From assembly GCA_028714535.1 (NCBI GenBank), contig JAQTME010000001.1:1270-65269 (forward strand): a DNA stretch of 64,000 nt, given 5' to 3'. The notes beneath the pieces are model-generated. The model was not told the origin of the DNA, made no database searches, and was given only the letters and a program-made list of their open reading frames with translations. The position numbers were made by a program, and so were the translations under genes. This stretch comes from Candidatus Iainarchaeum sp. GTDB taxonomy: Archaea; Micrarchaeota; Micrarchaeia; Anstonellales; Bilamarchaeaceae. Of the stretch, positions 20,247 through 53,762 are shown one piece after another (the stretch's first letter is position 1; each line of letters opens with the position of its first letter).

Positions 20247-20495
20247 CTACCTGCGTGTTTCGAGGAAAGCCGCCCAGTCGGGCTCGCTGATGCCGATTTC
20301 GATGCGCTTGCGGCGGGATGTGAGGCCTGAGGCGATGCGCACGGGAGCGCCGAGCAGCTTGGAGAGCTCTTTCACGAGCTCCAGGTTCGCCTTGTTGCCC
20401 TCGGCTGCGCTCTTCAGGAAGATTTTCACCTTGCCGTCCTTGAAGGAAACGGAAAAACGCCCGGATTTGGGCACAGCGGTGACGTCTGCGATCAT
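20247..20495 (-). CDS. DUF167 (YggU-like) protein
   Basis: EGNKANLELVKELSKLLG... resembles DUF167. I chose the start that overlaps the upstream stop by 4 nt (ATGA). Confidence 0.55.
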   Translation of the reverse strand: MIADVTAVPKSGRFSVSFKDGKVKIFLKSAAEGNKANLELVKELSKLLGAPVRIASGLTSRRKRIEIGISEPDWAAFLETRR

Positions 20496-21358
20496 ATGAG
20501 GATGAGGCTCCTTGCGAAGAGCAGCGACAGCACCATGCCGACGAGTATGAAGGGCAGGAATGGGGGCAGCTTGGTGTATACCCACAGGTCCGTCACCTTC
20601 GTCCTCTTCAGGCGCTCAAGCTCTGACGCGGTCACCACGCGCTGTATCTTGTAGCGCTCGATGAGGTCCTTGTTCATTATCTCCATGGCCAGGACGTCCT
20701 CGGGCTGTATCTGCGCCAGCGGGAGCTCCTCTGCCAGGAGCATGTTGAGCGACTCCCTGAACATCAGGAAGAATATCGTGGCGAACAACAGCGCCGATAT
20801 GAACGCGAAATAGACCGGCGAGAATATGAACGAATTGACGTAGACGTAGGCGAACAGGAGGTAGGGGATGAACATGAGCCCGTAGAGCAGGTTCGGCTTC
20901 ACCTCGGGCTCCTGGCTGAGCCTCCATCCGAACCAGCCCATGACGTAGAGCGCGAACAGCACGCCCGAGAATATGAACACAGAGAACACGAACGGCATGT
21001 TGAACGGCATGCCGACGAACGAGGGGTGCACAGGCAGGAGCAGCATCACCGACGCCAGGACGAACACGTCTGCGCCGCCGAGCTGGCCGACGCGGTAGAA
21101 CACGTATCCGACGGCTGAGAAGAACACGGCCACGGCCAGAGAGAACCAGAACAGGTCCTGTTGGTAGAATATGATGTTGACGAGCAGTGCGAGCACCAGG
21201 AACGCATAGAGGAACTCGTTTGGCACGTTCTTCTTGTTGAACAGGTCGTAGTAGGCCGCCACGCCAGTGCCTACGAAGGCGATAATAAGGCGTATGAGTT
21301 CTCCGGGCATCACAAGCTTGCCGAATATGACTTCCTCTAACATAGGCCTATACCTCAA
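20492..21358 (-). CDS. A24-family aspartic peptidase (archaeal prepilin/preflagellin peptidase-like, PibD/FlaK)
   Basis: Polytopic membrane protein with a first Asp context (AAYYDL) and a second catalytic-type motif GGADVFV. Confidence 0.6.
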   Translation of the reverse strand: MRYRPMLEEVIFGKLVMPGELIRLIIAFVGTGVAAYYDLFNKKNVPNEFLYAFLVLALLVNIIFYQQDLFWFSLAVAVFFSAVGYVFYRVGQLGGADVFVLASVMLLLPVHPSFVGMPFNMPFVFSVFIFSGVLFALYVMGWFGWRLSQEPEVKPNLLYGLMFIPYLLFAYVYVNSFIFSPVYFAFISALLFATIFFLMFRESLNMLLAEELPLAQIQPEDVLAMEIMNKDLIERYKIQRVVTASELERLKRTKVTDLWVYTKLPPFLPFILVGMVLSLLFARSLILI

Positions 21359-21395: not shown

Positions 21396-23057
21396 CTATT
21401 TCGGCGCTGCGACGCCATAGGAGGCGATACGGAGCGCCAACGCCGCCAGGGGCGGAGGCACCATGGCGCGGCGCAGGATTTTGCCCAGCAGCGACACGTC
21501 CTCGCGCCTGAGGCATTTCATCAGGAGCGCAAGCAGGAAAAAGACGCCTGCGACAAACGCTGCCAGGAGGGCCAGGAACGAGAGGTAGACCGCCTTGTCG
21601 GCGATGGAGAACTGGACGCTGTCGGAAGGCTGCCAGAATATGCCGAGGGCGGAGAATGCGTGCGCCTTCAGCAGGGCCATGACAATGAAGGCTGCCGCGG
21701 CAGCAGCAAGCAGCTTCAGCGTCTCCGCAGGGAACTTGAAGCCGTACAGGACCCGGCCGTAATGGCGGTAGAGCAGCAGGAGCAGCGTGAAGCTGAGCAG
21801 GGACGCCAGGGCCGCGCCCTCCATGCCGAAGCCGGGGATGAGCAGGATGCAGAGGATGACGTTGGCTACCGCAGCCGCGGCTGAAATCCTGAGCTCAAGG
21901 CCCACCTGCCTGAGGGCTGCCAGCGCCATGGAGACCAGGTAGGCGAAGCCGTTCATCATTATGCCTAGGGTGAATATGAACATCACGAGCCAGCCTGCCT
22001 GGTAGGCCTGGCCATAGAAGGCGCCGAGCAGCTCGGACGGGAGCGAGATCATGACAACGGTGACCGGAAGTATGATGAACAGGAGCCAGCGCTGGGCCGT
22101 GTCCATGGTGGAGCGCATCTGGTCCGTGTCGTCCTTGCCTGCCAGCCTCGACATCACAGGCAGGAACACGGAGCCTATGGCTGCGGGGAACATCACGAGC
22201 ACGGTGGCCAGCGTCGTCGATATCGAATAGACTGCGATGAGCTGGGTGGCCTGCGAAGGCGGGGCCAGGTAGCCCAGCAGGATGCGGTCCGAGGAGACCA
22301 GCAGCAGGTTCAGCGAGTAGATGGCGGTGAGCATGAGGCCGAACGGCACCACTTCGGTGAGCACGAAATGGAAGGACGGCATCGCCTCCTTCCCCACTGG
22401 CAGCGAACGCTCCTTGCGGGAGACTAGTAAGAAGCCCACGAGGACCACGAGCAGGTGGGTTATCAGGAAGGGCATCGCGATTGTCATGAAGGAAGCGCCG
22501 AAAAAGAAGAAGAATGCGATGGTGAGCACGAACTTGAGCAGGTTGTCCATGTTCAGGAGGAACTGCATCTGCTTTATGTCGCTGAGGCCGTTGAGGAACG
22601 AGTAGTTTATCCTGAATATGTTGTTCAGCAGCAGGAACAGAGAGACTATGCGCAGCGCGCCCGGCAGGAGCGGGTTCTGGTACATGGAGCCCAGCGTGTC
22701 GGCGCACAGCCAGATGGCGCCCACGAAAAGCACGCTCAGGAGCGTAACGGTGAGGTAGGCGTACTTGAGCAGGGCCCGGACCTTCCCGTGCTCGCCCCTG
22801 CCCTCGTAATAAGGCGTATACCTTATGAGCGAGGCCGGCAGCCCGAGGTCGCTGATTACTATGAAGGTGGTGACGACTGCCAATGACAGGTAGAACAGCC
22901 CGATGTCGTCCTGGGACGCCATCCTGGCTATGATTACGACGTAGAGGAAGGAGATGAACTTGTAGAACAGCCCGCCGAAAAGGCTCCAGAAGCTGCCCCT
23001 TGCCACTTCCTTGGAATGGGCGGACACGTCTTCCGCAACCATGTCTTCGCCGTCCAT
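21396..23057 (-). CDS. MOP-superfamily oligosaccharide flippase (Wzx-like polysaccharide biosynthesis protein)
   Basis: About 12-14 TM helices, which is typical Wzx/MATE-like topology. It is the first gene of the glycosylation island. I took the ATG at 23057 as the start. Confidence 0.7.
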   Translation of the reverse strand: MDGEDMVAEDVSAHSKEVARGSFWSLFGGLFYKFISFLYVVIIARMASQDDIGLFYLSLAVVTTFIVISDLGLPASLIRYTPYYEGRGEHGKVRALLKYAYLTVTLLSVLFVGAIWLCADTLGSMYQNPLLPGALRIVSLFLLLNNIFRINYSFLNGLSDIKQMQFLLNMDNLLKFVLTIAFFFFFGASFMTIAMPFLITHLLVVLVGFLLVSRKERSLPVGKEAMPSFHFVLTEVVPFGLMLTAIYSLNLLLVSSDRILLGYLAPPSQATQLIAVYSISTTLATVLVMFPAAIGSVFLPVMSRLAGKDDTDQMRSTMDTAQRWLLFIILPVTVVMISLPSELLGAFYGQAYQAGWLVMFIFTLGIMMNGFAYLVSMALAALRQVGLELRISAAAAVANVILCILLIPGFGMEGAALASLLSFTLLLLLYRHYGRVLYGFKFPAETLKLLAAAAAAFIVMALLKAHAFSALGIFWQPSDSVQFSIADKAVYLSFLALLAAFVAGVFFLLALLMKCLRREDVSLLGKILRRAMVPPPLAALALRIASYGVAAPK

Positions 23058-23058
23058 G

Positions 23059-23967
23059 TCAGCCGGCCCTCCTGCGCTCGGACGCCACAAGGCGCCTGAC
23101 GCCGTCCTCAAGGGATACCGATGAGCGGAAGCCCAGCCGCCTTTCCGCCAGGGACGTGTCCGCCAGCGTGTGGGCGACATAGTTCCTTATCCGGTTCGGC
23201 TGGTACACCGGCCTTATGGACGTGCCCAGCTCCGCGTTGAGCAGCCCGACCACGCGGTTGAACGTGGCCGCCTTACCTGTGCCGATGTTGAATATGCCGT
23301 GCTCCATGCATCCCAGCGCGAGCGTGTTCGCCTTCACCACGTCGTCCACGTGGATGAAGTCGCGCGTCTGCATGCCGTCGCCGAACAGCACCGGGCTCTC
23401 CCCGGCCTCCATGGCCCACATGAACTGGCTGATGGGATTCGCATACCTGCCCTTGGGGCGCTCGCCGGGGCCGTAGACGCTGAAATAGCGCAGGCCTGCC
23501 GAAGGGAGCGAGTAGAGGGAGTGATAGAGCTCTGCCAGCCGCTCCATCGCATAGCGCGCCTCTGTGTAGAAATCCGTTACCGCGATTGGCATGCCCTCGC
23601 GGTGCGGAGGCTCATTGCCGTTGTAGAGGGAGCTGGATGACGCAAAAACCAGGCGGCTGTCGTTCCTGCGCGCGTAGTCGAGGACCGCGAGCCAGTCTGC
23701 CAGCGCCCTGGCGACGAGCTGCGGGTTTTCCAGGTACATCGGCGACGAGGAATAGGTGCCGAGATGGAGCACCGCCTCGAATTTCCCCTTCATGCCTGCG
23801 ATTTTGCCTGCATCGCCTTCAATGGCCTTCACCTTTGCCGCTGCGATGCTGCTGCGGCTGCCGGTGTGCAGGTTGTCAAGCACACTGACATCATGCCCTT
23901 CGGCGACAAGGCGCGCGGCCGTGTGTGAGCCGATGAAGCCGAGGCCGCCGGTAACGAGTATCTTCAT
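23059..23967 (-). CDS. NAD-dependent sugar epimerase/dehydratase (extended SDR family)
   Basis: TGGLGFIGSH Rossmann motif and a YxxxK catalytic motif. Confidence 0.8.
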   Translation of the reverse strand: MKILVTGGLGFIGSHTAARLVAEGHDVSVLDNLHTGSRSSIAAAKVKAIEGDAGKIAGMKGKFEAVLHLGTYSSSPMYLENPQLVARALADWLAVLDYARRNDSRLVFASSSSLYNGNEPPHREGMPIAVTDFYTEARYAMERLAELYHSLYSLPSAGLRYFSVYGPGERPKGRYANPISQFMWAMEAGESPVLFGDGMQTRDFIHVDDVVKANTLALGCMEHGIFNIGTGKAATFNRVVGLLNAELGTSIRPVYQPNRIRNYVAHTLADTSLAERRLGFRSSVSLEDGVRRLVASERRRAG

Positions 23968-24003: not shown

Positions 24004-24990
24004 TCATTTGCCCCTGTGGAGCTCAAGCAGCTCCTCAGCGAGCCTGAAGCGGCCCATGCCGTCCACCAGCTCGCTCAGCCTCGCAGACATGCGGTCGCGG
24101 GCCTGCTTGTCAGAGAGGAGCGCTTCGAGGGACATGGCGCCCTGCGGATCAAGGCCGCCTGCTGCGCCCAGCGAGAGCGCAAGGCCGTTCTTGGCCGCGT
24201 AATCTGACGCTGGCGATTCGCCTATGAGCGCGGTGGGCAGCGCGAAAAGCGCCGGCTCGCAGAGGGACTCCGGGCCTGTGATTGCGAAATCGCAGGCCGC
24301 AAGGCGCCTGGCGAGGTTGCCCTCGTTACGCATTGAATTGAAGCGCGGGTCCAGCCCTATCTCGCGGGCCAGCTCCTCGCCATCGCTCAGGACCGTCGCT
24401 GAGAACTGGCCAGGGAGCGACTTGAGCAGGCGCACCGCATCAAGGGCATGGTCCTGCCCGCTGAAGTATACGAGCAGGCGCCTAGCTTTTTCAGGATTGG
24501 CGCAGCGGAACTCCTGGAATTCGTCGAATTCTGGGGGGAGCAGGGCGAACTCGGTGCCCAGGAACAGCGCGCCGTCGCATGGGTATTCGGCCAGGTGCGC
24601 GTGGATGCTTGGGTCTATGAGCGCATGGGCGGCGTAGGATTTGAGGCGCACCGAATCGCCGAAGGCCGCGAGCGTCTTCACCTTCCCTGCGAGGGAGCTG
24701 AGGAAACCCTCGTCGGCGGCAGGCCTGTCCACCACGAGCATGTCTGCGCCTAGCTCGCCCACCTTCTCCGCCGTCGCATCAAGGTCCCAGGATGTCAGGG
24801 TGAGGTCGCCGAGCTGGGCGTGGGCGAAGCCGCAGCGCGCTATGGCCTGCGCGTCGCGGGCGTGCGAAAGGAACGTGATTTCGCAGGACGGGTCGCTTTC
24901 CTTCAGGCCTGATGCGAGCGCGAGGCAGCGCTGCAGGCGCCACGCGCCGGTTTTCGGGTCTGATTCTGCACGGAAGGCGATTTTCGGCAT
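24004..24990 (-). CDS. pseG: PseG-like UDP-sugar hydrolase (GT28 C-terminal-like fold)
   Basis: N-terminal MPKIAFRAESDPKTGAWRLQRCLALA resembles PseG (MKI.FRAD.S..IG.GHVMRCL.LA). It lies in the nonulosonate gene neighbourhood. Confidence 0.55.
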   Translation of the reverse strand: MPKIAFRAESDPKTGAWRLQRCLALASGLKESDPSCEITFLSHARDAQAIARCGFAHAQLGDLTLTSWDLDATAEKVGELGADMLVVDRPAADEGFLSSLAGKVKTLAAFGDSVRLKSYAAHALIDPSIHAHLAEYPCDGALFLGTEFALLPPEFDEFQEFRCANPEKARRLLVYFSGQDHALDAVRLLKSLPGQFSATVLSDGEELAREIGLDPRFNSMRNEGNLARRLAACDFAITGPESLCEPALFALPTALIGESPASDYAAKNGLALSLGAAGGLDPQGAMSLEALLSDKQARDRMSARLSELVDGMGRFRLAEELLELHRGK

Positions 24991-25000
24991 GGGAAGCGCC

Positions 25001-26134
25001 TCAGTATGTCTTTCTCCTGCCCAGGACGCTGTCCGCGGCGGCAAAGACCTCGTCCACGGTTATCAGCTTCATGCACTCGCCGTCGCACGGCCTGAACTCG
25101 TTGATGTGGACGTTTATCACAGGATGGCCGGGCGTCGGATGGTATATTGCGGTGTTGCGCCCCGGTGGGAACGGGCCGAAGCGCTCGGGCGTGTTCGGGC
25201 CGAAAAGGCCGATGGCCGGCACGCCCTGGGCCGCTGCGATGTGCATCGGGCCGGTGTCGTTGGACACCATAAGGTCGTACTGGCTTATCAGGTAGAAGAG
25301 CGTCGATGCTGCCATGTCAGGGAAATTGTACACGCCCCCCTTCCGTTTCAGCATCGATATTATCTCCTCGTTGCCTGCCGCCTCTGCGCCTGAGCCCGTG
25401 AGTATCACCGTGCAGTCGTACCTCGCGGTTATCCGGTCTATCAGCTCCGCGAACCGTTCCTTGGGCCACGCGCGCCACGGGGCGGTCGGGCCGCAGAACG
25501 CATGGATGCCGATGATGGGCTTGCCTCCCTTGGGCCTGATATTGTTTGCCTCGAAACGGAGGTCGGCGGCCTTGCGCGCTGCCTCGCCGTACCTCAGCCT
25601 GACCAGCTCCGCAGGCCTTGCCGCGATGCCCAGCGGCGAGAGCAGGTCGCAGAACGTGTAGACCACGTGCTGGCGGTCGTTGTAATGGACGTTGGCATCG
25701 TACAGCTTCGCGCGCTCGCCGTAATCGAAGCCGATTGAGCGCTTCCCCATGAAGAACGCGAGGATTGCGGAAATCGCGAAGTGCGGCTCGGTGTCCATGG
25801 CCAGGTCGTACCTCCACAAGCTGGCCAGCACAATGATCGGAAGCTGCCAGGTCCACACCGTCCTGCACTCGTCTATGAACGGCTGGGCGAAGAACACGTC
25901 GTAGTTGCGCCGGGTGCACAGGACGGTTATTTTAGCGTCCGGCCTCGCGTCCTTGAGCGCCTTGAGCAGGGGTAATGTGAGTATGGTCTCGCCGAGGCCC
26001 CAGAAGCGCAGGACAAGGATGCTTTTCGGCTGCTGGTCGAGCGGCTTTTTTTTCTTGAATACTGAAAGCAGCCTGCAGAAGAATGGCAGGATATTTTTCT
26101 CGACAAAGCGCTCTGCGCCGTAGAACAGGCTCAC
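25001..26134 (-). CDS. glycosyltransferase family 9 (ADP-heptose:acceptor heptosyltransferase-like)
   Basis: N-terminal ILVLRFWGLGETILTLPLLKAL is the GT9 hallmark. Its start overlaps the stop of the downstream hldE-like genes. Confidence 0.7.
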   Translation of the reverse strand: MSLFYGAERFVEKNILPFFCRLLSVFKKKKPLDQQPKSILVLRFWGLGETILTLPLLKALKDARPDAKITVLCTRRNYDVFFAQPFIDECRTVWTWQLPIIVLASLWRYDLAMDTEPHFAISAILAFFMGKRSIGFDYGERAKLYDANVHYNDRQHVVYTFCDLLSPLGIAARPAELVRLRYGEAARKAADLRFEANNIRPKGGKPIIGIHAFCGPTAPWRAWPKERFAELIDRITARYDCTVILTGSGAEAAGNEEIISMLKRKGGVYNFPDMAASTLFYLISQYDLMVSNDTGPMHIAAAQGVPAIGLFGPNTPERFGPFPPGRNTAIYHPTPGHPVINVHINEFRPCDGECMKLITVDEVFAAADSVLGRRKTY

Positions 26135-26634
26135 CGCCTCCCGCCAGAGTAGGCCTCGATTATCTTCTTTATGAGCGACGTGGTGGTTATCTCTGACCCG
26201 GAGTCCTCTATGACCACCTTGCCGCCGTATGAGCGCACGAGCCCGGTCTCGGGCATCCTGTCAGCCTTCCAGTCGCCGCCCTTCACGTGGACGTCTGGCT
26301 GGAGCGCCTCGATAGTCTTTTCAGGGGTGCTTTCCTCGAAAATGACCACGTAATCAACGCACGGGAGCGCGCACAGCATCTCGGCGCGGTATTTCTGCGC
26401 GACGATAGGCCGCAGCGGGCCTTTTATCTTCCTGACGGACTCGTCGGAGTTGATGCCGACTATGAGCACGTCGCCGTGGGACTTGGCCTTGTTCAGGAAG
26501 CGCACGTGGCCCACGTGCATCAGGTCGAACACGCCGTTGGTGAAGACGAACTTCACCTTCTTGTCCTGGTCCCTGAGCTTCTGCCGAATGGATGCAAGCT
26601 TTTCAACCGTGATTAGTTCCCCCATGTCAATCAA
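26131..26634 (-). CDS. D-beta-D-heptose 1-phosphate adenylyltransferase (HldE domain II, stand-alone)
   Basis: FTNGVFDLMHVGHVRFLNKAKSHGDVLIVGINSD...VKGGDWK matches the RfaE/HldE C-terminal cytidylyltransferase-like domain. Confidence 0.85.
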   Translation of the reverse strand: MIDMGELITVEKLASIRQKLRDQDKKVKFVFTNGVFDLMHVGHVRFLNKAKSHGDVLIVGINSDESVRKIKGPLRPIVAQKYRAEMLCALPCVDYVVIFEESTPEKTIEALQPDVHVKGGDWKADRMPETGLVRSYGGKVVIEDSGSEITTTSLIKKIIEAYSGGRR

Positions 26635-27565
26635 GCCCCGGCAGCTCGGCCAGTGTTATCGCCGGATGCGGCTTTGCGATGGCCTTCGCGCAGCCGGCGT
26701 TGGCGAGCTTCACCGCATCGTCCATGCTTTTCCCCGATGCCAGCGCAAGCGTGAATATCGCGACGAAGATGTCGCCGGCGCCGGAGACGTTGACCACTTC
26801 TTTAGCCATGGACGGCCAGGTGCGGAACGCATTGGCTTTCGCATCTGCTATTGATGCGCCCTTCCCGCTCCGTTTCACGACCACCACGCTGCCGCTCGAT
26901 TTGGACAGTGCAAGCGCGCAGGCGCGGACTTCAGCCTCTTCATTTTTCATGCCGTCCTTGCCTGACGCTGCGCCGAGCTCGTGCAGGTTCGGCACGAGTA
27001 TGACGTTGCCGCCCCTGTAGGCGCCGATGTCGCCCTTGGTGTCCACGACGACCTTCTTTCCCTTCGCACGGGCGAATGCGAGCGCGCCTTCAATGAGTTT
27101 TTTGGTTAGCATGCCCTTCGCGTAATCGGAGATGATGATGAAGTCGGCGTCTTTCGCTGCGCTTTCAAGCCTTTCAAGCACCGCGCGCTCGGCAGCCGCG
27201 CTTATGGGCCGGCGCGTTTCGCTGTCAGCGCGCAGGAGCATCTGGAACAGCGGCTTTGTTTTCACGAAGCGCGTTTTCAGCGTGGTTTTCCTGTCCTCTT
27301 CGACCGGAAGGAAGTTTACGCCTGCCTCGGACAGCAGCTTCATGATGCCTGCTGCCGGCACGTCCATGCCGACGACAGAAAGGAAATGGACGTGGACGCC
27401 CAGGCCGGCCAGCGTCGATGCCACTATGCCTGCGCCGCCTGGGAAAAACTCCTCCCTTTCAACGTCAAGCACAGGCACGGGCGCCTCAGGCGACATCCGG
27501 TTCACCGAGCCGTAAACGTAATGGTCGAGCATCACGTCGCCGATGACAAGTATTTTCTTTGGCAT
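26627..27565 (-). CDS. D-beta-D-heptose 7-phosphate kinase (HldE domain I, stand-alone ribokinase-fold)
   Basis: ILVIGDVMLDHYVYGSVNRMSPEAPVPVL matches the HldE N-terminus, and a C-terminal GAGD motif is present. Confidence 0.85.
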   Translation of the reverse strand: MPKKILVIGDVMLDHYVYGSVNRMSPEAPVPVLDVEREEFFPGGAGIVASTLAGLGVHVHFLSVVGMDVPAAGIMKLLSEAGVNFLPVEEDRKTTLKTRFVKTKPLFQMLLRADSETRRPISAAAERAVLERLESAAKDADFIIISDYAKGMLTKKLIEGALAFARAKGKKVVVDTKGDIGAYRGGNVILVPNLHELGAASGKDGMKNEEAEVRACALALSKSSGSVVVVKRSGKGASIADAKANAFRTWPSMAKEVVNVSGAGDIFVAIFTLALASGKSMDDAVKLANAGCAKAIAKPHPAITLAELPGLD

Positions 27566-27572
27566 AGAACCG

Positions 27573-28163
27573 CTACCCGCTCCTGTGTGGCACTGGCCTG
27601 ATGGAGAACGCGTCGTCCACCAGCCCGCAGATGCAGTGGATTATGAGTATGTGCATCTCCTGTATCGTGGGCGTGCTGTCCGAGGCGACCACGAGCGATT
27701 TGTCGCACATCGGCTTCAGCCTTCCGCCGCCCTTGCCGAGCAGCGCGACCGTCTGGATGCCGATTGCCCTGGCTGCCTTCGCGGCCTCCAGCAGGTTCTC
27801 TGAGTCGCCGCTGGTGCTCAGGAGCACGAGCACGTCGCCCCTTTTCCCGAGCGCCTCGACCTGGCGCGCGAACACGCGCCCGAAGCCGTAGTCGTTTGAA
27901 ATCGCAGTGAGCGCGGATGTATCAGTCGTGAGCGCGATGCCGGGCAGCGCCTTCCTCTCCTTGATGTACCTGCCGCTGAGCTCTGCTGCGAAATGCTGGG
28001 CGTCGGCGGCGCTGCCGCCGTTGCCGCAGATGAGGACCTTGCCGCCTGCCTTGAGGGAAGCCAGGATTGGCGATGCCAATGCCTCTATGTCTGCCGCCTT
28101 GAGGCCCTGGCAGACTTTCGCATGCTCCAACAGCAAATCGGACGGTTTCATCACTCCCATCAT
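27573..28163 (-). CDS. gmhA: phosphoheptose (sedoheptulose-7-phosphate) isomerase, SIS domain
   Basis: [17 protein letters not shown] motif. Confidence 0.85.
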
Positions 28164-28219
28164 ATCGGGGACGGTTTTTATTCTTTTTTATCCCTAATAG
28201 GATATCTTCTGGTGTGTTT

Positions 28220-29206
28220 ATGGATGACGTTTTAGACGGCAAAGTGGTCCTGGTGACCGGTGGCACCGGCTCATTCGGCACGAAGTTCGCCGAGGTCCTG
28301 CTCAAGAGCCACAATCCCAAGTCCATAAGGGTCTATTCAAGGGGCGAGCTCAAGCAGGTCGAGATGGAGCGCAAGCTGGGCCAGCCGAAGGTCCGCTTCC
28401 TCGTCGGCGACGTGCGCGACAGGGAGCGGTTGTACCGCGCCATGAACGGCGTGGACATAGTGGTCCACGCGGCGGCGCTCAAGCACGTTCCGGTATGCGA
28501 GTACAATCCCATGGAGGCGGTGAAGACCAACGTCCATGGCGCGGAGAACGTCATCGACGCGGCCATAGACAACGGCGTGGAGAAGGTCATAGCGCTGAGC
28601 ACCGATAAGGCGGTCCAGCCGGTCAACCTTTATGGCGCTACGAAGCTCGTCGCTGAGAAGATGTTCGTCCAGGCGAATGCGTACGTGGGCATGAGGAAGA
28701 CGAGGTTCAGTTGCGTGCGCTACGGCAACGTCATCGGCAGCAGCGGCAGCGTGGTCCCGCTTTTCGCAAAGCAGAAGGAGAAGGGCGAGGTCACCATAAC
28801 CGACGAGCGCATGACAAGGTTCTGGATAACGCTTGAGGAAGGCGTGGCGCTGGTCCTCAAGTCCATAGAGCTCATGAAGGGTGGCGAGATATTCGTGCCG
28901 AGGATACCGAGCACTAAAATCACTGAGCTGGCGGACGTGATGGCGCCCGGCGCGAAAAAGAAGGTCATAGGCATAAGGCCTGGCGAGAAGCTCCACGAGG
29001 TGCTCATAACCCAGGACGAGGCACGCCACGCGAAGAAGGTGGATGGGACATTCATAATCGAGCCCGAGCATGCGTTCTGGGACGTGAAGAACCATGTGAA
29101 GGGGGTGCCGCTGCCCGAGGGATTCTCATATTCAAGCGACAACAACGACTGGTGGCTGGCCAAAGACGAATTGAAGAAGGTCCTCAAGAAAGAGGGGTGG
29201 CTCTAA
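28220..29206 (+). CDS. pseB: UDP-N-acetylglucosamine 4,6-dehydratase (inverting), PseB/FlmA/CapD-like
   Basis: VLVTGGTGSFG and the YGATK catalytic motif. I chose the ATG at 28220; the track lists a GTG at 28214. Confidence 0.8.
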   Translation: MDDVLDGKVVLVTGGTGSFGTKFAEVLLKSHNPKSIRVYSRGELKQVEMERKLGQPKVRFLVGDVRDRERLYRAMNGVDIVVHAAALKHVPVCEYNPMEAVKTNVHGAENVIDAAIDNGVEKVIALSTDKAVQPVNLYGATKLVAEKMFVQANAYVGMRKTRFSCVRYGNVIGSSGSVVPLFAKQKEKGEVTITDERMTRFWITLEEGVALVLKSIELMKGGEIFVPRIPSTKITELADVMAPGAKKKVIGIRPGEKLHEVLITQDEARHAKKVDGTFIIEPEHAFWDVKNHVKGVPLPEGFSYSSDNNDWWLAKDELKKVLKKEGWL

Positions 29207-29253
29207 CGGCTGACGGAGGCCGCCTTGCGGCCGAACGTCCTCGTGGTGGTTAT

Positions 29254-30414
29254 ATGGAGGAGAAGAAAGGCGTGAAGCAGCTTCCGTATGGCCGCCAGTT
29301 CATAGACGATGACGACATCAACGCGGTCATAGCAACCCTGAAAAGCGACTGGCTCACGACCGGTCCGAAGGTGGATGAGTTCGAGAAGGCGATATGCGAT
29401 TATACAGGGGCGAAATACGCGGTGGCGGTGAATTCAGGCACGAGCGCGCTTGACATCGCAGTGGCCGCGTTCGGCCTGCCTGCTGGAAGCGAAATCATAA
29501 CGACGCCGTTCTCATTCGCCGCATCGGCGAACTGCATCGCGTACAACGGCTGCAGGCCGGTTTTCGCGGACATCGACCCGAAAACCTACAATATAGACCC
29601 GGAGCAGGTGCGGAAAAAGATAACGAAGAAAACAAAGGCGATAATCTACGTCGATTACGCAGGCCAGCCCTGCGACATAAAGGCGCTGCAGGAGATAGCA
29701 GAAGAAAAAAACCTGTTCCTGATTGAGGACGCTGCGCACGCGCTTGGCGCGAAATACAATGGCAAAAAAATCGGCACGTTCGCCCATATGACCGAGTTCT
29801 CGTTCCATCCTGTCAAGCACATAACTACCGGCGAGGGCGGCGCGATAACAACGGACGACGGCGCACTGGCCGACAAGCTGCGCATGCTGCGCAACCACGG
29901 CCTGGACAAAAGCGCGCGGGAGCGGTTCGGGCCCGACGCGGGCTACGCATACGACATGAGGATGCTCGGGCGCAACTATCGCATAACGGACATGCAGTGC
30001 GCGCTCGGGATATCGCAGATGAAAAAGCTCGACAGGTTCATAAAAGGCAGGAGGGAGCTCGTTGCGGCATACGGCAGGGAACTCGCAACCCTGCCGCTGG
30101 CCATGCCATACGTCGCGCCGAACGTGGAAAGCGCCTGGCACCTGTATACGGTCCAGCTCGGCAGGGGCATAAGCAGGGATAAGGTGTTCGCGGCCATGCG
30201 CAAGAGAGGCGTAGGCGTCAACGTCCACTACATACCCACTTACAAATTCACATACTACAAGAAGAATTTCCCGGCTAACGATTCGGACTATCCAGCTACT
30301 GAGGACGTGTTCTCGCACATACTCACCCTCCCGCTTTTCTACGGCATGAAGGAGGCAGACGTGCAGTGGGTGGCGAAGGAGCTCAGCGAAAGCATCAGGG
30401 AGGCAGGGCAATGA
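29254..30414 (+). CDS. pseC: DegT/DnrJ/EryC1-family PLP aminotransferase (PseC-like)
   Basis: Pyridoxal-lysine context FSFHPVKHITTGEGG. I chose the ATG at 29254, downstream of the pseB stop. Confidence 0.8.
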   Translation: MEEKKGVKQLPYGRQFIDDDDINAVIATLKSDWLTTGPKVDEFEKAICDYTGAKYAVAVNSGTSALDIAVAAFGLPAGSEIITTPFSFAASANCIAYNGCRPVFADIDPKTYNIDPEQVRKKITKKTKAIIYVDYAGQPCDIKALQEIAEEKNLFLIEDAAHALGAKYNGKKIGTFAHMTEFSFHPVKHITTGEGGAITTDDGALADKLRMLRNHGLDKSARERFGPDAGYAYDMRMLGRNYRITDMQCALGISQMKKLDRFIKGRRELVAAYGRELATLPLAMPYVAPNVESAWHLYTVQLGRGISRDKVFAAMRKRGVGVNVHYIPTYKFTYYKKNFPANDSDYPATEDVFSHILTLPLFYGMKEADVQWVAKELSESIREAGQ

Positions 30415-31457
30415 GAACGGTTTCCATCGGCGGCAGGAAGGTCGGCGGCGACGCGCCGTGCCTCATCGTGGCGGAAATCTCATGCAACCACCTGCAGAAG
30501 AAGGAATACGCGCTCAGGCTCATAGACGAGGCGAAAAAGGCAGGTGCGGACGCGGTCAAGTTCCAGACCTACACGCCTGACACGATAACAATGAAATCGG
30601 ACAACGAATACTTCAGGATAAAGGGCACATTGTGGGCAGGAAAAACTCTCTATGACCTTTATCAGGAGGCGTACACGCCCTGGGACTGGTTTCCTGAGCT
30701 GAAGAAAAGGGCTGAAAAGCAGGGGCTCGTTTTCTTCTCATCGCCGTTTGACGAGAGCGCGGTCGATTTCCTTGAGAAGCTGGGCGTCCCTGCGTACAAG
30801 ATCGCCTCGTTCGAGATCAACCACATCCCGCTGCTGAAATACGTGGCCGCGAAAAAGAAGCCGGTCATCATATCGAGCGGCGTCGCTACACTGGAAGACC
30901 TGGAACTGGCCGTGAAGACCATCCGCGGCCAGGGCAACGATGAGATAATAATCCTTAAATGCACCAGTGCATACCCTGCGCCGCCCAACGAGATGAACCT
31001 GCGGACCATACCTGACATCGCCGAGCGGTTCGGCGTGGTGGCAGGGCTCTCTGACCACTCCACGGGCATCGCCGCGCCTGCCGCGGCCGTCGCGCTGGGC
31101 GCGAAACTGATAGAGAAGCACATCACGCTTGACAGGAAGCTTGGCGGGCCGGACGCCGAGTTCTCGCTGGAGCCCGCGGAGTTCGCAGCCATGGTAACGG
31201 CGGTCAGGGAAACCGAGCAGGCGCTGGGAAAAGTGACATACGAGGCCGGGAAGAAGACGAAGGAGCACCTGTTCGCCATGCGTTCCATCTTCGTGACCGA
31301 GGACATACCAAAGGGCGAGGCGCTCACCAGGAATAACGTACGGGTGATACGGCCCGGCTATGGCCTCCATCCGAAGCACTACGAAGAGGTTCTCGGCAGG
31401 AAGGCGAAGAAAGCGCTCAAGAAAGGCACTCCGCTTGGCCTGGACATGATAGAATAG
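30411..31457 (+). CDS. pseI: nonulosonic acid synthase (NeuB/PseI family)
   Basis: TIM-barrel NeuB signatures (GADAVKFQT and HITLD). Its start overlaps the pseC stop (ATGA). Confidence 0.8.
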   Translation: MRTVSIGGRKVGGDAPCLIVAEISCNHLQKKEYALRLIDEAKKAGADAVKFQTYTPDTITMKSDNEYFRIKGTLWAGKTLYDLYQEAYTPWDWFPELKKRAEKQGLVFFSSPFDESAVDFLEKLGVPAYKIASFEINHIPLLKYVAAKKKPVIISSGVATLEDLELAVKTIRGQGNDEIIILKCTSAYPAPPNEMNLRTIPDIAERFGVVAGLSDHSTGIAAPAAAVALGAKLIEKHITLDRKLGGPDAEFSLEPAEFAAMVTAVRETEQALGKVTYEAGKKTKEHLFAMRSIFVTEDIPKGEALTRNNVRVIRPGYGLHPKHYEEVLGRKAKKALKKGTPLGLDMIE

Positions 31458-31467
31458 GGTCGGTTTC

Positions 31468-31899
31468 ATGGACATCACGCTGAGGCCCGTGGAAAAGGGC
31501 GACATAGGGAAGATATTCGAATGGCGGAACCACCCTGCGGTGAGGAAGAACATGTTCAGCACCGCACCCATAACGAAAGAGGAGAACGCCGCATTCTGGG
31601 AGAAACGGCTCGCTGACCGGTCTGCGTTCTCGTTCATCGTAAGCGCAGGCGGCGCTGATGCGGGCATGGTCAGGCTGGACAGGCGGGAGGGCTCCTACGA
31701 GGTTGGCGTGCTCATAGACCCGAAGATGCAGGGGAAGGGGATTGGCAGCGGTGCACTGGCGCTCACAATCATACTGGCAAGGGGGAATGGCATGAAGAAG
31801 CTGACCGCCAGGATAAAAGAGGGGAACGAGGCGTCCATGCAGGCGTTCGAGAAAAACGGGTTCGTGAAGAAAGGCCAGCACTACGAGCTTGACCTGTAG
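31468..31899 (+). CDS. pseH: GNAT N-acetyltransferase (PseH-like)
   Basis: GNAT motif QGKGIGSGAL. It sits immediately after pseI. Confidence 0.5.
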   Translation: MDITLRPVEKGDIGKIFEWRNHPAVRKNMFSTAPITKEENAAFWEKRLADRSAFSFIVSAGGADAGMVRLDRREGSYEVGVLIDPKMQGKGIGSGALALTIILARGNGMKKLTARIKEGNEASMQAFEKNGFVKKGQHYELDL

Positions 31900-32666: not shown

Positions 32667-32732
32667 GGATAACGCTCGGGAGAAAAATTTATAACACCGG
32701 ACAGGCAAAGGGATAGTACTTCTGGTGTGCAA

Positions 32733-40130: not shown

Positions 40131-40138
40131 GTGGTATC

Positions 40139-49411: not shown

Positions 49412-51259
49412 ATGATAGTGATGCTCGCGTATTTTCTTGTTGTGATGCTCGCCATGGGATTCGCAGCCTGGCGGCTTCTCGGCGCTCAAGAGGATGACGA
49501 CTGCACGAAGGCATTCATCTGGCTGGCGACAGGCATCGTGCTTTTTGTGATGGCGACCGCCGTTCTCGGATTCATCGGTCAGGCGAACTGGGCCGCATAC
49601 CTCGTTATCGCCGCTGCGCTTCTTGGCGCCGCATACTGGAAAGACAGCAAGGCCGGCATCAGATACAATCTAAGGCTGCCTGTGCTGGGCCTGGAATGGA
49701 AGCTGGTCTGCCTCATCTTTCTTGTCCATCTCTATGTGTACGCGAGCGGTGCGTTCTCCTACCCATGGCTCGAGGACGACGACCCGTGGGAGCATGCCGC
49801 GGCAGCGCATTACGTGTCGCTGTACGGCAGCTACATCCAGCCCACTGGCCTGCCCCTCCACTACCTCGTGCCATACACGCCATTCTACGACGTGCTCCTG
49901 GGAGTGCTTTTCCAGCTCGACAATTCATCGATGCAGGCTGTGCTGAAATTCTTCAATGCCCTGCTGGTCAGCCTCGCCATACCGTTGTTCTTCTGCTGGG
50001 CGAAGGAAAGGCTCGGCGGCCGCACGGCCCTCTGGGCCACGTTCGCGCTCGCTGTGCTGCCCTGCTTCATGAGCCATTTCATATGGTCGCAGACGCTCGC
50101 GCTCATGCTCGTGTTCCCTGCATTATATTTCATCGAGAAGTTCTCCAAGGCTGATGCCCACAAGAAGGCTTTCGGGGTTCTAGCGGCCTTTGCGGTCGCA
50201 TCCGTATTCATGACGCAACCCTCCACCGGAGCCATGTTCGGCGGCCTGGCGGTTGTCTACATAGCCGCGCTCGCGCTACCGGACATCATTACATCGCGCA
50301 CGCTCATTCTCTCTAAGCTGAAGCCGCCCGCAATCGCGCTCGGCGCAGGCCTCCTCATCTCAATCGTGCTTTTCTGGGGCCCGGTTTTCGCCATGTATCC
50401 TGTCGAGCAGGTGTTCGCGCAGAACAGCCTGAGCGCAAAATTGCTCACAGACGTCCAGGGGGATACGGGCGGCGGGCTTGTTTACAGCATAAGCGACTTC
50501 ATCGACGCACCGTCCTCATCAAAGATGGACCAGCCGATAGGCTTCGGCCCGGCGATGGCCCTGTTGATGATTATCGGTGTGATTGCGGCCATATACGCGC
50601 TGCGTTCCCAGGAAAACAGGGATTCCGCAGCCGTCATGCTGCTGTGGCTTGCCTACGGCCTCATCGGCACAGAAGGCAACCTGCTGCCTGTGAAGCTCGT
50701 GCCCCACCGCTTCTGGGTTTTCCTTGCCATACCGGTCGCGATCCTGGCCGGATACGGCGCAGTCAAGGCGCTGGAGTACATAGAGAAGAACCGCAAGGGC
50801 ATGGAACTGATAGCCAAGGCGCTTATAGTGGCTGCGCTGCTGTTCACGTCAGCGTATCCGAAGGGCGTGGTGGAGACGTCCCAATGGCCGCCGGGCGCCA
50901 AGTGGGTTTCAGATGCGCAGATTTCAGGCTACGTCGGCCTCAAGGGCCTGCCGGCGAACACGCCGGTATTCGGCTTCTGTTTCGGCGAGGAGTTCGCAGA
51001 CGGCATGGACAAGGCGGGCTACGCCTGGATAAAGGAAGTGCGCGATTACAAAACGCGCTCCATCACCGACAGCATGGACGGCAACTACGCATTCCTGAAA
51101 AAATACGGCTACCAATACGCTGTGATCGACCAGAGCTGCCTGAATGCATTCACCGCAGACCAGATAAACGCCAAGCTCAACGGATTGGGCGGCGACGGCA
51201 GATTCACTGTGGCGGAGCAATATTCGAACCAGGCGTTCATCACGCTCAAGGTGAATTAG
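49412..51259 (+). CDS. GT-C-fold polytopic membrane glycosyltransferase-like protein (not a canonical AglB/STT3)
   Basis: About 13 TM helices plus a C-terminal soluble domain of about 150 aa. An acidic first-loop motif YPWLEDDDPWEH resembles the GT-C catalytic loop. No WWDYG motif is present. Confidence 0.55.
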   Translation: MIVMLAYFLVVMLAMGFAAWRLLGAQEDDDCTKAFIWLATGIVLFVMATAVLGFIGQANWAAYLVIAAALLGAAYWKDSKAGIRYNLRLPVLGLEWKLVCLIFLVHLYVYASGAFSYPWLEDDDPWEHAAAAHYVSLYGSYIQPTGLPLHYLVPYTPFYDVLLGVLFQLDNSSMQAVLKFFNALLVSLAIPLFFCWAKERLGGRTALWATFALAVLPCFMSHFIWSQTLALMLVFPALYFIEKFSKADAHKKAFGVLAAFAVASVFMTQPSTGAMFGGLAVVYIAALALPDIITSRTLILSKLKPPAIALGAGLLISIVLFWGPVFAMYPVEQVFAQNSLSAKLLTDVQGDTGGGLVYSISDFIDAPSSSKMDQPIGFGPAMALLMIIGVIAAIYALRSQENRDSAAVMLLWLAYGLIGTEGNLLPVKLVPHRFWVFLAIPVAILAGYGAVKALEYIEKNRKGMELIAKALIVAALLFTSAYPKGVVETSQWPPGAKWVSDAQISGYVGLKGLPANTPVFGFCFGEEFADGMDKAGYAWIKEVRDYKTRSITDSMDGNYAFLKKYGYQYAVIDQSCLNAFTADQINAKLNGLGGDGRFTVAEQYSNQAFITLKVN

Positions 51260-52202
51260 TTTCGATGAGGTAGCGTATCGTCCTTCTGACGCCGTCTTCT
51301 ATGCTGACCTTCGGCTTCCAGCCGAGCGCCTCCATGCGCTTCGTGGAAAGCAGGACGACCGGCTGGTCCCCGACCCATCCGCCTGCGCCGCCCGTATGAC
51401 GGTATTCTACGTCATTAAGACGCATCTCCTGCACTATCATGTCAGCGACAGTGTCCACGCCGATGGTGTAGCCCTGCCCGAGATTGTAGATTGAAGTGGC
51501 ACCTGCTTTCGCTGCCCTGGCCCCTGCCATCATCCCCGCCACGCAGTCCTTGACATAAAGGTAGGACTTCTTCTGCTTCCCGTCGCCGAGGATTTCCAGC
51601 CGCCGGGGATTTTTTTTCAGCTTGCGGTAGAAGTCTATCACAACGCCGTGCGGATAGCGCTCGCCGACTATGGAGACGAACCTGTAGATGGAATTCGCTA
51701 TGCCGTAATACTCTGAATAGGCCTCGATGAGCGCCTCCCCTGCGAGTTTGGACGCGCCGTAGAGCGAGTTCTGTATCATCGGCGCATCCTCTGGCACAGG
51801 GAAAGCCTTCTGGATGCCATAGACGGCCCCTGACGAGCTGAATGCGATGCCCTTTATGTCGTTGAGCCGCATCGCCTCGAGCACGTTGTGCGTCGCGATG
51901 GTATTCTGCTCCAGGTCTATTGAGGTATTTGCCATTCCGCCGCGGATGTCTGCATTGGCGGCCAGGTGGAATATGAACTCGGCGCCTGCGCATGCCTTGA
52001 TGAGTGCGTCCTTCTTCAGCAGGTCGAGCTTCTGGAACGAGTAGTTCTTTGCCTTTTTGTGCGCTTCGACAATTTTTGGCTGGCCTGTGCGCATGCTGTC
52101 CAGGACGAGCACGTTCGCGCCCTGCAACAGGAGCTCGTCGACCACATGGGAGCCTATGAATCCTGCGCCACCAGTGACAACAACGCTCTTTCCGGAGAAC
52201 AT
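51246..52202 (-). CDS. NAD-dependent epimerase/dehydratase
   Basis: VVVTGGAGFIGSH and the YGASK catalytic motif. Confidence 0.8.
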   Translation of the reverse strand: MFSGKSVVVTGGAGFIGSHVVDELLLQGANVLVLDSMRTGQPKIVEAHKKAKNYSFQKLDLLKKDALIKACAGAEFIFHLAANADIRGGMANTSIDLEQNTIATHNVLEAMRLNDIKGIAFSSSGAVYGIQKAFPVPEDAPMIQNSLYGASKLAGEALIEAYSEYYGIANSIYRFVSIVGERYPHGVVIDFYRKLKKNPRRLEILGDGKQKKSYLYVKDCVAGMMAGARAAKAGATSIYNLGQGYTIGVDTVADMIVQEMRLNDVEYRHTGGAGGWVGDQPVVLLSTKRMEALGWKPKVSIEDGVRRTIRYLIETNSP

Positions 52203-53185: not shown

Positions 53186-53189
53186 GGCA

Positions 53190-53762
53190 TCAGGCCTCTC
53201 CCATTTGTTTTCTCACAATGTGTATCTTGAGCAGGTGGCCGATGACGAAATGCACGTCCTCGGCAATCTCCACGTTGTCTGTCTTGGCTATTATGCAGTG
53301 TTTCGCGGTGCTGGCGAGCTTTCCGCCCTTGAAAGCGGCCAGGCCGGCTGTGTGCGCCCCTGCGCCGTTAGCATATTCGATGGCGCGCAGGACGTTGGGT
53401 GAATTCCCGCTGGTGCTTATGCCGATTGCCAGGTCGCCCGGCCTCAGCAGGTTCTCCAGCTGCTCCTTGAATATCATGTCGTATGACGTGTCGTTGCCCC
53501 AGGCCGTCATCAGCGGCACGTTCTCGTTGAGGCAGATGATCCTGAGGCGCTTCTTGCCAGGGACTATCGTGCCCTTTGACAGGTCGGCTGCGAAATGGAC
53601 CGCGTTAGTGGCGCTGTCGCCGTTGCCGAAAACATATATCGTGCCGCCGCGCGCGTTCGTTTCAAGCAGGAGATTTGCGAGGGACGCCACGTCCTCCTCG
53701 TCTATGGCGTCTAGGCATTGTTTCAGCATTTTCACGTAGGAATTCAAATCAGGCACGTTCAT
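53190..53762 (-). CDS. gmhA: phosphoheptose isomerase, second paralog
   Basis: SIS motif VFGNGDSATNAVHFAADL. Confidence 0.85.
   Translation of the reverse strand: MNVPDLNSYVKMLKQCLDAIDEEDVASLANLLLETNARGGTIYVFGNGDSATNAVHFAADLSKGTIVPGKKRLRIICLNENVPLMTAWGNDTSYDMIFKEQLENLLRPGDLAIGISTSGNSPNVLRAIEYANGAGAHTAGLAAFKGGKLASTAKHCIIAKTDNVEIAEDVHFVIGHLLKIHIVRKQMGEA

Follow-up and report, generated by a model that had tools for sequence, protein, structure and literature searches.

A block of heptose genes in a DPANN archaeon appears to make up the variable first part of a conserved operon for a surface glycan, and we put the probability that heptose is made, transferred and flipped as proposed below at roughly 0.6. 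The window (the whole 64,000-nucleotide stretch that was analysed) comes from a DPANN archaeal MAG. Its archaeal origin, already assumed in an earlier note on this DNA, is confirmed by genes for the RFC large subunit, an XPD helicase and the proteasome alpha subunit within it; the GT9 glycosyltransferase of the block matches NCBI MDD5339645.1 ('Candidatus ainarchaeum sp.') at 100% identity. The same heptose module has been reported in other archaea, and the DPANN operon is one more example of it, not a new kind of system.

Four minus-strand genes, co-directional and tightly packed, occupy positions 25001-28163, and the best solved relative of each product is the matching heptose enzyme. The operon opens with gmhA (27573..28163), encoding a sedoheptulose-7-phosphate isomerase (TIGR00441, 213.7 bits, cutoff 209.45) whose best PDB match is C. 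jejuni GmhA 1TK9 (215.8 bits). It is followed by a stand-alone HldA-type kinase (26627..27565; PfkB, 128 bits), for which rfaE_dom_I is the top NCBIfam match (259 bits, under the cutoff of 345) and B. cenocepacia HldA 4E84 the best PDB match at 145 bits, the next family reaching just 48 bits. The third gene (26131..26634, with a TTG start and an alternative ATG at 26625) encodes a stand-alone hldC-type heptose-1-phosphate nucleotidyltransferase (rfaE_dom_II, 182.9 bits, cutoff 181.5), matched best in the PDB by chain 5X9Q (131 bits), a 'putative cytidylyltransferase' which we take to be B. pseudomallei HldC. At the STTR5 position this protein carries Ile (SGSEITTT vs FEHDRSTT), and since it lacks the Arg characteristic of NTP-promiscuous enzymes, ADP-heptose is its most likely product. 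The last gene of the block (25001..26134) encodes a putative heptosyltransferase of family GT9 (PF01075, 101 bits, cutoff 22). The earlier note had placed and identified all four ORFs correctly. Its description of 4-8 nt overlaps holds for hldC and GT9 (4 nt) and, with the TTG start only, for hldA and hldC (8 nt, or a 1-nt gap from the ATG at 26625), but gmhA and hldA are separated by a 7-nt gap.

The heptose block opens a longer minus-strand operon, with the close co-directional packing running from gmhA through to a flippase. The next gene, an ORF in the range 24004-25044, encodes a PseG-like GT-B protein (24004..24990, the ATG start being chosen to agree with the called gene in the locus L087) that scores 65.6 bits against the PseG model TIGR03590 (cutoff 153.55). 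Full-length homologues at 25-29% are PseG proteins or PseG-PseH fusions, and an AF2 model (pLDDT 92) gives its best TMt, 0.77, with C. jejuni PseG 3HBM. Where PseG has its catalytic His this protein has Arg, GxGH reading GAWR; the position is Q in the nearest relatives, and the His is kept in the homologues P0252, P0254 and P0255. Adjoining this gene is an HldD-like extended SDR (23059..23967), a candidate ADP-heptose 6-epimerase with heptose_epim as its top NCBIfam match (156 bits, cutoff 274.6). By phmmer it lies closer to the GalE-type 4ZRM (139 bits) than to HldD (3SXP, 97 bits; 1EQ2, 79 bits), and it keeps the Lys corresponding to E. coli K178, while YxxxK reads YxxxR. Among the SDRs of the window it is the closest to those of heptose cassettes in other archaea. 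An hldD gene had previously been suggested for a search elsewhere; one was thus found next door, but as a candidate only. The operon continues with a MOP (Wzx/MurJ-like) flippase (21396..23057; Polysacc_synt 79 bits, Polysacc_synt_3 and MurJ), its start chosen to agree with the 553-aa called gene in L087, and the downstream neighbour is a prepilin/preflagellin peptidase-like Peptidase_A24 (20492..21358, minus strand; PF01478, 30.7 bits).

On the plus strand, divergent from the heptose operon, are pseB, pseC, pseI and a pseH-like GNAT gene of the pseudaminic acid pathway (28214..31899). PseB (495.7 bits), PseC (467.5 bits) and PseI (483 bits) each exceed their cutoffs and PseH (51.5 bits) falls under its own. 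Judging from the sequence, the 50-bp, A/T-rich region between gmhA and pseB (28164..28213) is presumed to be a bidirectional promoter. We did not find gmhB inside the heptose block. The only copy in the window, for heptose 1,7-bisphosphate 7-phosphatase, is unlinked to it, 27 kb away on the minus strand (54454..55023). This protein scores 159.5 bits against PRK08942 (cutoff 178), passes HAD-IIIA models and is called merely 'HAD family hydrolase' in NCBI (MDD5339673.1), and its three named top PDB matches are D,D-heptose 1,7-bisphosphate phosphatases. None of HldA, GmhB, the operon's SDR and the PseG-like protein reaches its NCBIfam equivalog cutoff. The gmhB gene sits inside a second heptose cluster, of the GDP-D-glycero-alpha-D-manno-heptose type, whose four other genes (51246..54457, minus strand) encode an SDR (51246-52202), an hddA-like GHMP kinase (52202-53185; HddA is the top NCBIfam match, 153.5 bits), a second GmhA, gmhA2 (53190-53762; NCBIfam gmhA is the top match, 104 bits), and an hddC-like NDP-sugar pyrophosphorylase (53759-54457; HddC model 87.5 bits, mannose-1-P guanylyltransferase model 142 bits). 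Its PDB matches include chains named heptose kinases, 3K85 and 4N3O. The GDP-heptose pathway (GmhA, HddA, GmhB, HddC) supplies the S-layer glycan of Aneurinibacillus and the capsules of Campylobacter and Burkholderia. The cluster in the window (51246-55023) has exactly this gene set and, unlike the pathway elsewhere, shares its sole GmhB with the ADP-type block. The earlier note had left out the second cluster, the distant gmhB and the PseG-like ORF.

The order of the operon is conserved among relatives. In L002, whose HldA is 72% identical, the genes follow in the same order SIS-PfkB-CTP_transf-GT9-PseG-like-SDR-flippase-A24, and the contig P0253 keeps this order from SIS to A24 with gmhB inside the cassette. 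A third syntenic locus, L088, retains the backbone of pseH-I-C-B, PseG-like gene, SDR, flippase, A24, LemA, M48 and proteasome, so that in all three the flippase follows the SDR and the A24 peptidase holds its position. In L088 a single GT4 gene stands in place of gmhA-hldA-hldC-GT9, and the SDR is kept without heptose genes nearby. The cassette therefore fills a glycosyltransferase slot of a flippase-dependent glycan. The earlier suggestion of heptose on a protein- or lipid-linked glycan fits this context of a GT4 slot in a relative, a same-operon MOP flippase and divergent pse genes.

The GT9 protein resembles LPS heptosyltransferases in fold and in its donor site. The AF2 model (pLDDT 91) finds its best matches, with TM 0.66-0.83, in Veillonella GT9 3TOV, WaaF (1PSW) and WaaC (2H1H), all CAZy GT9 enzymes of GT-B fold. 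It shares with them the D(T/S)GxxH donor motif, present here as NDTGPMH and invariant across the archaeal clade, and a carboxylate at the catalytic-base position, with Glu for the Asp of the GD motif, presumably WaaC Asp13. Sequence identity to WaaC, WaaF and 3TOV is just 18-21% and the window protein, unlike WaaC/WaaF, belongs to an archaeal/CPR subclade; their acceptor, Kdo2-lipid A, cannot exist in this host. We consider the addition of heptose to a lipid-linked surface glycan the most likely role of GT9.

The proposed pathway would start with the conversion of sedoheptulose-7-P to D-glycero-D-manno-heptose-7-P by GmhA, from which the stand-alone HldA kinase would make the beta-1,7-bisphosphate. 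GmhB, encoded in the GDP-heptose-type cluster, would remove the 7-phosphate and the stand-alone HldC would form an NDP-heptose, most likely ADP-heptose. The adjacent HldD-like SDR may then invert C6 to give the L,D form. At the cytoplasmic face, GT9 would move heptose onto a polyprenol- or dolichol-linked oligosaccharide, which is probably given pseudaminic acid too, and the same-operon flippase would translocate the glycan for attachment to surface proteins. A possible target, encoded in the island at 45037-49299, is a protein of 1420 aa with a signal peptide and 85 N-x-S/T sequons, vs 32.7 +/- 4.9 in shuffles. Several observations weigh against this pathway: the operon has no gmhB of its own, four of the proteins stay under their equivalog cutoffs, the SDR has GalE-type traits and YxxxR and persists in L088, the PseG-like protein has lost the catalytic His, and the window yielded no AglB/STT3. 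To our knowledge, heptose has been chemically demonstrated in no DPANN glycan. Commentaries on Tang et al., Science 2024 (PMC11573728, PMC11461863) describe the heptose enzymes of M. maripaludis and report that archaeal heptose enzymes made ADP-heptose in vitro.

The earlier note had read the block as a bacterial LPS-type ADP-heptose route acquired laterally together with its GT9, had taken the split of HldE as a notable derived feature and had expected bacterial nearest neighbours. We think this quite unlikely. Past the close split kinases, the next-best kinase matches are fused bacterial HldE proteins (40-45% identity, slightly more than the 31-37% of Woesearchaeota/Nanoarchaeia HldA), and the best solved relatives of the kinase, HldC and GmhA are bacterial. 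However, HldA groups with other split kinases at 99% bootstrap, in a Micrarchaeota/Iainarchaeota clade where every named member belongs to Micrarchaeota; the deeper nodes lack resolution and show no bacterial sister. The nearest GT9 relatives (34-88% identity) come from Micrarchaeota, Woesearchaeota, Nanoarchaeia, Aenigmatarchaeota, Altiarchaeota, Methanococcales and a few CPR, nearly all remaining bacterial loci stand at 25-33% (the exceptions are a CPR protein at 45% and a Bacteroidales MAG contig at 34%), and the module occurs widely in DPANN as well as in Methanococcus. On these phylogenetic grounds a recent transfer from bacteria is not supported. Nor does the split set the block apart, since 4E84 and 5X9Q are single-domain bacterial chains and the archaeal Hld relatives come split (M. 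maripaludis), as fused HldE (L018) or as a GmhA-HldA fusion (L030).

Two other readings accept the pathway and differ on GT9. The enzyme could attach heptose straight to a protein in the cytoplasm, as TibC/Aah do, or build a membrane glycolipid or lipoglycan, which we regard as unlikely but conceivable: the model can also be aligned with TibC, a protein heptosyltransferase, no AglB/STT3 was found within the window, the N-domain that binds the acceptor shares only ~20% identity with the LPS enzymes, and lipoglycans are made by Thermoplasma-type archaea. The TM of about 0.57 with TibC, however, is far below that of the LPS-type GT9s, which use lipid-linked acceptors, and both the conserved, co-transcribed flippase behind the cassette and the swap with GT4 in an otherwise identical flippase locus argue for a flipped, lipid-linked glycan. 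We give very little credence to GT9 using another donor while NDP-heptose serves as a soluble metabolite or as a modified-heptose precursor shared with the GDP-heptose cluster. That cluster does have its own SDR, in one locus (L004) hldC-gmhA-hldA stands without a GT9 within 10 kb, and PMC11573728 describes what heptose does physiologically in archaea as unknown. Against this, hldC and GT9 overlap, ADP-heptose-using enzymes share the nucleotide-sugar motif and supply the best structural matches, and GT9 has hldA or hldC no more than 10 kb away in 12/20 archaeal loci, as also in Methanococcus, vs 7/44 bacterial loci (Fisher p = 0.0008). An archaeal clade with a non-heptose function had been raised as the counter-case; the clade is indeed archaeal, but this flanking by hldA/hldC speaks against the non-heptose part.

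Compared with the bacterial ADP-heptose route (cited in PMC12667266) with Burkholderia HldA 4E84 and 5X9Q, the window encodes specific homologues for all four biosynthetic activities and, in addition, the candidate epimerase, and as in Burkholderia the kinase and nucleotidyltransferase are separate polypeptides. Unlike that route, the window has an archaeal host without LPS, gmhB outside the operon, a divergent HldC motif, an SDR with YxxxR and a cassette embedded in a pse/flippase glycan locus. A close parallel in gene content is M. maripaludis, where ADP-heptose clusters lie in glycan islands (PMC12667266) and the genes run GmhA-HldC-HldA-GmhB-GT9-GT9-SDR-GT4-GT9...flippase. In both, a variable glycan island adjoining nonulosonic-acid genes holds split hldA/hldC, gmhA, GT9 (40% identical), an HldD-like SDR and a MOP flippase. 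The window differs in phylum (DPANN), in having one GT9 instead of three and no gmhB in the cassette, and in the PseG-like gene between GT9 and SDR. Finally, the N-glycan of Thermoplasma acidophilum contains D-glycero-D-galacto-heptose (PMC11407970, PMC12448462), a precedent for heptose on archaeal surface proteins, albeit with a different heptose isomer and in a different phylum.

The four genes described in the earlier note lie on the minus strand, and independent evidence assigns each product to the enzyme family proposed for it there; that observation is confirmed, and its interpretation is supported in part. GmhA (27573-28163), a sedoheptulose-7-phosphate isomerase, scored 213.7 bits against TIGR00441, above the equivalog cutoff of 209.45, and its best solved relative is GmhA of C. 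jejuni (1TK9, 215.8 bits). The HldA-type PfkB kinase (26627-27565) scored 259.2 bits against rfaE_dom_I (TIGR02198), which is under the equivalog-domain cutoff of 345 and is still the top family by far (next best, 86 bits). The kinase adjoins gmhA and hldC, and its best solved relative is the heptose-7-phosphate kinase HldA of B. cenocepacia (4E84, 145 bits; next family, 48), as expected of a heptose-7-phosphate kinase. The HldC-type cytidylyltransferase-like protein (26131-26634) passed rfaE_dom_II (TIGR02199) by a narrow margin (182.9 bits, cutoff 181.5), with chain 5X9Q, which we take to be B. pseudomallei HldC, as its closest solved relative (131 bits), and the GT9 glycosyltransferase (25001-26134) scored 101.4 bits against PF01075 (gathering threshold 22). 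The block is indeed tight, but the 4-8 nt overlaps ascribed to it hold only approximately: gmhA and hldA are separated by 7 nt, hldA and hldC overlap by 8 nt (or are 1 nt apart if hldC starts at the ATG at 26625), and hldC and the GT9 gene overlap by 4 nt.

In a commentary on Tang et al. 2024 (PMC11573728), the STTR5 motif, (F/L)XXGRSTT with Arg at position 5, is described as a mark of NTP-promiscuous enzymes, and the motif is also said to be not strictly needed. The window HldC departs from this motif, reading SGSEITTT where 5X9Q has FEHDRSTT, with Ile aligned at the Arg position, and the Arg was absent from every archaeal HldC examined. With this residue lacking, ADP-heptose is the default prediction for the product of HldC.

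The host is a DPANN archaeon, in agreement with the archaeal assignment of the earlier note: the window carries genes for the large subunit of RFC, for an XPD helicase and for the alpha subunit of a proteasome. The GT9 protein, a PseG-like protein and a GmhB homologue encoded in the window are 100% identical to MDD5339645.1, MDD5339644.1 and MDD5339673.1, from a MAG named "Candidatus ainarchaeum sp." at NCBI, and close homologues carry the Micrarchaeota label. The GT9 protein belongs to CAZy GT9/PF01075 by its score, by a GT-B fold nearest WaaC/WaaF and by its D(T/S)GxxH donor motif. Its AlphaFold model (pLDDT 91) has as top Foldseek matches the Veillonella GT9 3TOV and the LPS heptosyltransferases WaaF (1PSW) and WaaC (2H1H), with TM scores of 0.66-0.83. 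The donor motif (NDTGPMH) is kept, and is invariant in the archaeal clade, and Glu occupies the site where 3TOV has the Asp of its GD motif. Against the equivalogs for LPS heptosyltransferases I, II and III (TIGR02193, TIGR02195, TIGR02201) the protein reached 62-71 bits, short of the cutoffs of 135-185, and since the host is an archaeon, Kdo2-lipid A is not expected as its acceptor.

The earlier note suggested that the block was acquired from bacteria and expected the nearest neighbours of its proteins to be bacterial. For GT9, the nearest relatives proved archaeal: Micrarchaeota at 47-88% identity, then Woesearchaeota, Nanoarchaeia, Aenigmatarchaeota, Altiarchaeota and Undinarchaeota at 34-45%, with M. 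maripaludis at 40% and Methanocaldococcus villosus at 41%. Some sequences from CPR come close as well, and nearly all other bacterial GT9 loci show only 25-33% identity. The window HldA, in turn, falls in a clade of split kinases with 99% support whose named members are all Micrarchaeota, and the deeper nodes have less than 50% support. Acquisition from bacteria is thus not supported as a recent event. The trees were bootstrapped, distance-based neighbour-joining trees (numpy implementation) that support shallow clades only, and we therefore make no claim on the ultimate origin of the genes. The splitting of HldE, which had been put forward as a distinguishing feature, loses that standing. The closest solved relatives of both the kinase and the transferase are also stand-alone single-domain chains, and M. 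maripaludis has split hldA and hldC; HldE is fused at a Woesearchaeote locus (L018, 8395+), and at an Aenigmatarchaeote locus (L030, 6112+) one ORF contains both the GmhA and the HldA match. DPANN differ in how the heptose enzymes are fused, and since split, fused and GmhA-fused forms all occur among archaea, and single-domain chains among solved structures, the split arrangement does not set this locus apart.

What does tie the archaeal GT9 genes to heptose is their neighbourhood. HldA or HldC flanks GT9 in 12 of 20 archaeal loci, compared with 7 of 44 bacterial loci (Fisher p = 0.0008), a comparison in which four of the eight archaeal loci scored negative have less than 4 kb of sequence on the side where heptose genes usually sit. 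On this genomic linkage we regard the window protein as a putative heptosyltransferase.

The block is part of a longer operon. Downstream of GT9, four further co-directional and almost abutting genes follow on the minus strand, encoding the PseG-like protein (24004-24990; assigned by profile, alignment and structure model), an extended, HldD-like SDR (23059-23967), a MOP flippase (21396-23057) and an A24 peptidase (20492-21358). Upstream of gmhA is a 50-bp A/T-rich gap, beyond which pseB, pseC, pseI and a pseH-like GNAT gene diverge on the plus strand. The order SIS-PfkB-CTP_transf-GT9-PseG-like-SDR-flippase-A24 recurs in a related locus on a 658-kb contig (L002; HldA 72% identical) and on the P0253 contig, there with gmhB added between hldA and GT9. 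A further related locus, L088 (GCA_902386555.1), keeps the backbone (pseH-I-C-B, then PseG-like, SDR, flippase, A24, LemA, M48 and proteasome genes) and has one GT4 gene at the position of gmhA-hldA-hldC-GT9, with heptose genes absent within 10 kb. The heptose genes therefore behave as a cassette, occupying a slot for glycosyltransferases in a glycan locus that depends on a flippase.

The glycan region as a whole extends over ~21-57 kb of the window. Two stretches of it (32727-36500 and 39138-43661) hold genes for a Gfo/Idh/MocA oxidoreductase, a CTP_transf_3 protein (PseF/KdsB-like), a class-III aminotransferase, a methyltransferase, RmlA/RmlB-like proteins, two more SDRs, a GT4 and a GT2. 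Within the pse island, an ORF (37467-38555, plus strand) gives a weak (E = 0.0025), full-length match to the alpha-2,8-polysialyltransferase family PF07388 (residues 6-320 aligned to positions 3-311 of the 316 in the profile), and is a candidate pseudaminic-acid transferase.

Two products of the operon resist a simple name. The top NCBIfam family of the SDR is heptose_epim (TIGR02197), at 156 bits against a cutoff of 274.6. This score, the higher phmmer scores of GalE-type structures than of HldD, the presence of YxxxR instead of the canonical SDR YxxxK, and the retention of an orthologue in L088, a locus without heptose genes, rule out its assignment as a certain HldD. The Lys equivalent to K178, the second catalytic Lys of E. 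coli HldD, is kept in an alignment with an E. coli sequence, and among the SDRs of the window this one is the closest to the heptose-cassette SDRs of other archaea (180-199 bits, compared with at most 114). Its identity is ambiguous, and we consider it a candidate ADP-glyceromanno-heptose 6-epimerase. The L002 orthologue (70% identical) also reads YxxxR, unlike the SDRs in the heptose cassettes of Woesearchaeota, of Nanoarchaeia and of M. maripaludis.

The PseG-like protein has a GT-B fold (model pLDDT 92) that matches C. jejuni PseG (3HBM) best when TM is normalised to the target (0.77), and its distant full-length homologues are PseG or PseG-PseH fusions; a PDB sequence search with the protein returned no match. 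The catalytic His of its GxGH loop, which we take to correspond to His17 of C. jejuni PseG, is replaced by Arg (by Gln in the nearest relatives, and kept as His by more distant archaeal relatives), and its 65.6 bits against TIGR03590 are below the cutoff of 153.55. We reject its designation as a certain hydrolase, and its activity is uncertain. The protein, "hypothetical" at NCBI, is the only PseG candidate in a pse set that is otherwise complete.

Pfam scans of ~30 ORFs found no HAD phosphatase in the block or the surrounding island. A GmhB homologue was located by tblastn at 54454-55023 (with an E. coli GmhB query) and was then supported by NCBIfam and the PDB: it scored 159.5 bits against PRK08942 (cutoff 178), passed the HAD-IIIA families TIGR01662 and TIGR01656, and its three named top PDB matches are all D,D-heptose 1,7-bisphosphate phosphatases. 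This gene lies in a second cluster, whose other members, all on the minus strand, encode an SDR (51246-52202), an HddA-like GHMP kinase (52202-53185), a second GmhA (53190-53762) and an HddC-like pyrophosphorylase (53759-54457). HddA is the top family of the kinase at 153.5 bits, below the 600 cutoff, and among its solved relatives are 3K85 and 4N3O, which bear the name of heptose kinases. Adjoining the cluster are genes for an AglJ-like Dol-P glycosyltransferase (55067-55729, minus strand) and an LPG_synthase_TM/flippase-like protein (55776-56780). The GDP-D-glycero-alpha-D-manno-heptose route uses GmhA, HddA, GmhB and HddC, and here the four are adjacent (52202-55023). With this set in the second cluster, the window is predicted to encode two heptose-activation routes, one of beta/ADP type and one of alpha/GDP type, with one visible GmhB.

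The same island also holds a plausible destination for the glycan. Between 44.8 and 49.4 kb, where the GC content is low (45-51%, compared with ~59% elsewhere), is a single 1420-aa ORF (45037-49299, minus strand); an rRNA operon was ruled out here, as Rfam finds no rRNA and the stretch is occupied by this ORF. The protein is rich in Asn, Ser and Thr, with a signal-like segment at its N terminus and a beta-helix region, and contains 85 N-x-S/T sequons, compared with 32.7 +/- 4.9 in shuffles. We consider it a probable surface protein with heavy N-glycosylation. By eye, its N-terminal and central regions resemble internal duplicates. Beside it, a 615-aa polytopic membrane protein (49412-51259, plus strand) has a weak PMT_2 (GT-C) match (E = 0.0027) and no STT3/AglB match, and is a candidate Dol-P-sugar-dependent glycosyltransferase. 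AglB was not found within the 64-kb window.

On the observed gene identities, synteny and phyletic position a pathway can be drawn, for which we infer the nucleotide, C6 configuration, acceptor and carrier. GmhA would convert sedoheptulose-7-phosphate to heptose-7-phosphate, HldA would phosphorylate it, the unlinked GmhB would remove the 7-phosphate, and HldC would activate the sugar, probably to ADP-heptose, which the SDR may epimerise at C6. GT9 could then move the heptose onto a lipid-linked oligosaccharide at the cytoplasmic face, and the co-transcribed MOP flippase would translocate the glycan, which probably bears pseudaminic acid too; the 1420-aa beta-helix protein is a plausible final acceptor. 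We put at roughly one in three (about 0.35) the probability of the full proposal, namely that the archaeal/CPR GT9 subclade found beside hldA-gmhB-hldC in DPANN and Methanococcales is the missing archaeal consumer of NDP-heptose, that it is carried here on a GT4-swappable cassette altering the surface glycan, and that a single GmhB serves the beta (ADP) route as well as the alpha (GDP) one.

Functional NDP-heptose enzymes were reported in archaea, including M. maripaludis, by Tang et al. 2024, as relayed in two commentaries (PMC11573728, PMC11461863), the first of which calls the role of heptose in archaea unknown and the reason for its presence one that "remains elusive" (PMC11573728). Heptose is chemically known from the N-glycan of Thermoplasma acidophilum (PMC11407970, PMC12448462). 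In M. maripaludis strains, a 2025 comparative study described ADP-heptose clusters beside sialic-acid-like clusters within variable glycan islands (PMC12667266), a pattern now extended to another phylum. The M. maripaludis locus has the same module as the window, with three GT9 genes. Features of the window's own are the cassette in a slot, a GmhB that is unlinked and may be shared, and the presence of two heptose routes together. The locus is a further example, from a DPANN lineage, of an already reported archaeal heptose module, and does not reveal a new mechanism. The window locus and its relatives do suggest a testable reason for archaeal NDP-heptose, in that a dedicated archaeal clade of GT9 enzymes is found beside nonulosonic-acid genes, in surface-glycan operons that depend on a flippase. 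DPANN archaea live attached to hosts, and variable glycans on their surface could plausibly determine contact with the host.

Elsewhere in the window, Rfam gives a borderline tRNA at 10775-10839 (minus strand; 30.3 bits, gathering threshold 29), and ARAGORN finds zero tRNAs across the whole window. The longest ORFs for glutamine synthetase (11503-12957, minus strand) and phosphoglucomutase (12494-14236, plus strand) overlap by ~460 nt on opposite strands; the phosphoglucomutase domain starts only at residue 149, so the true start of this protein is probably much later than that of the longest ORF.
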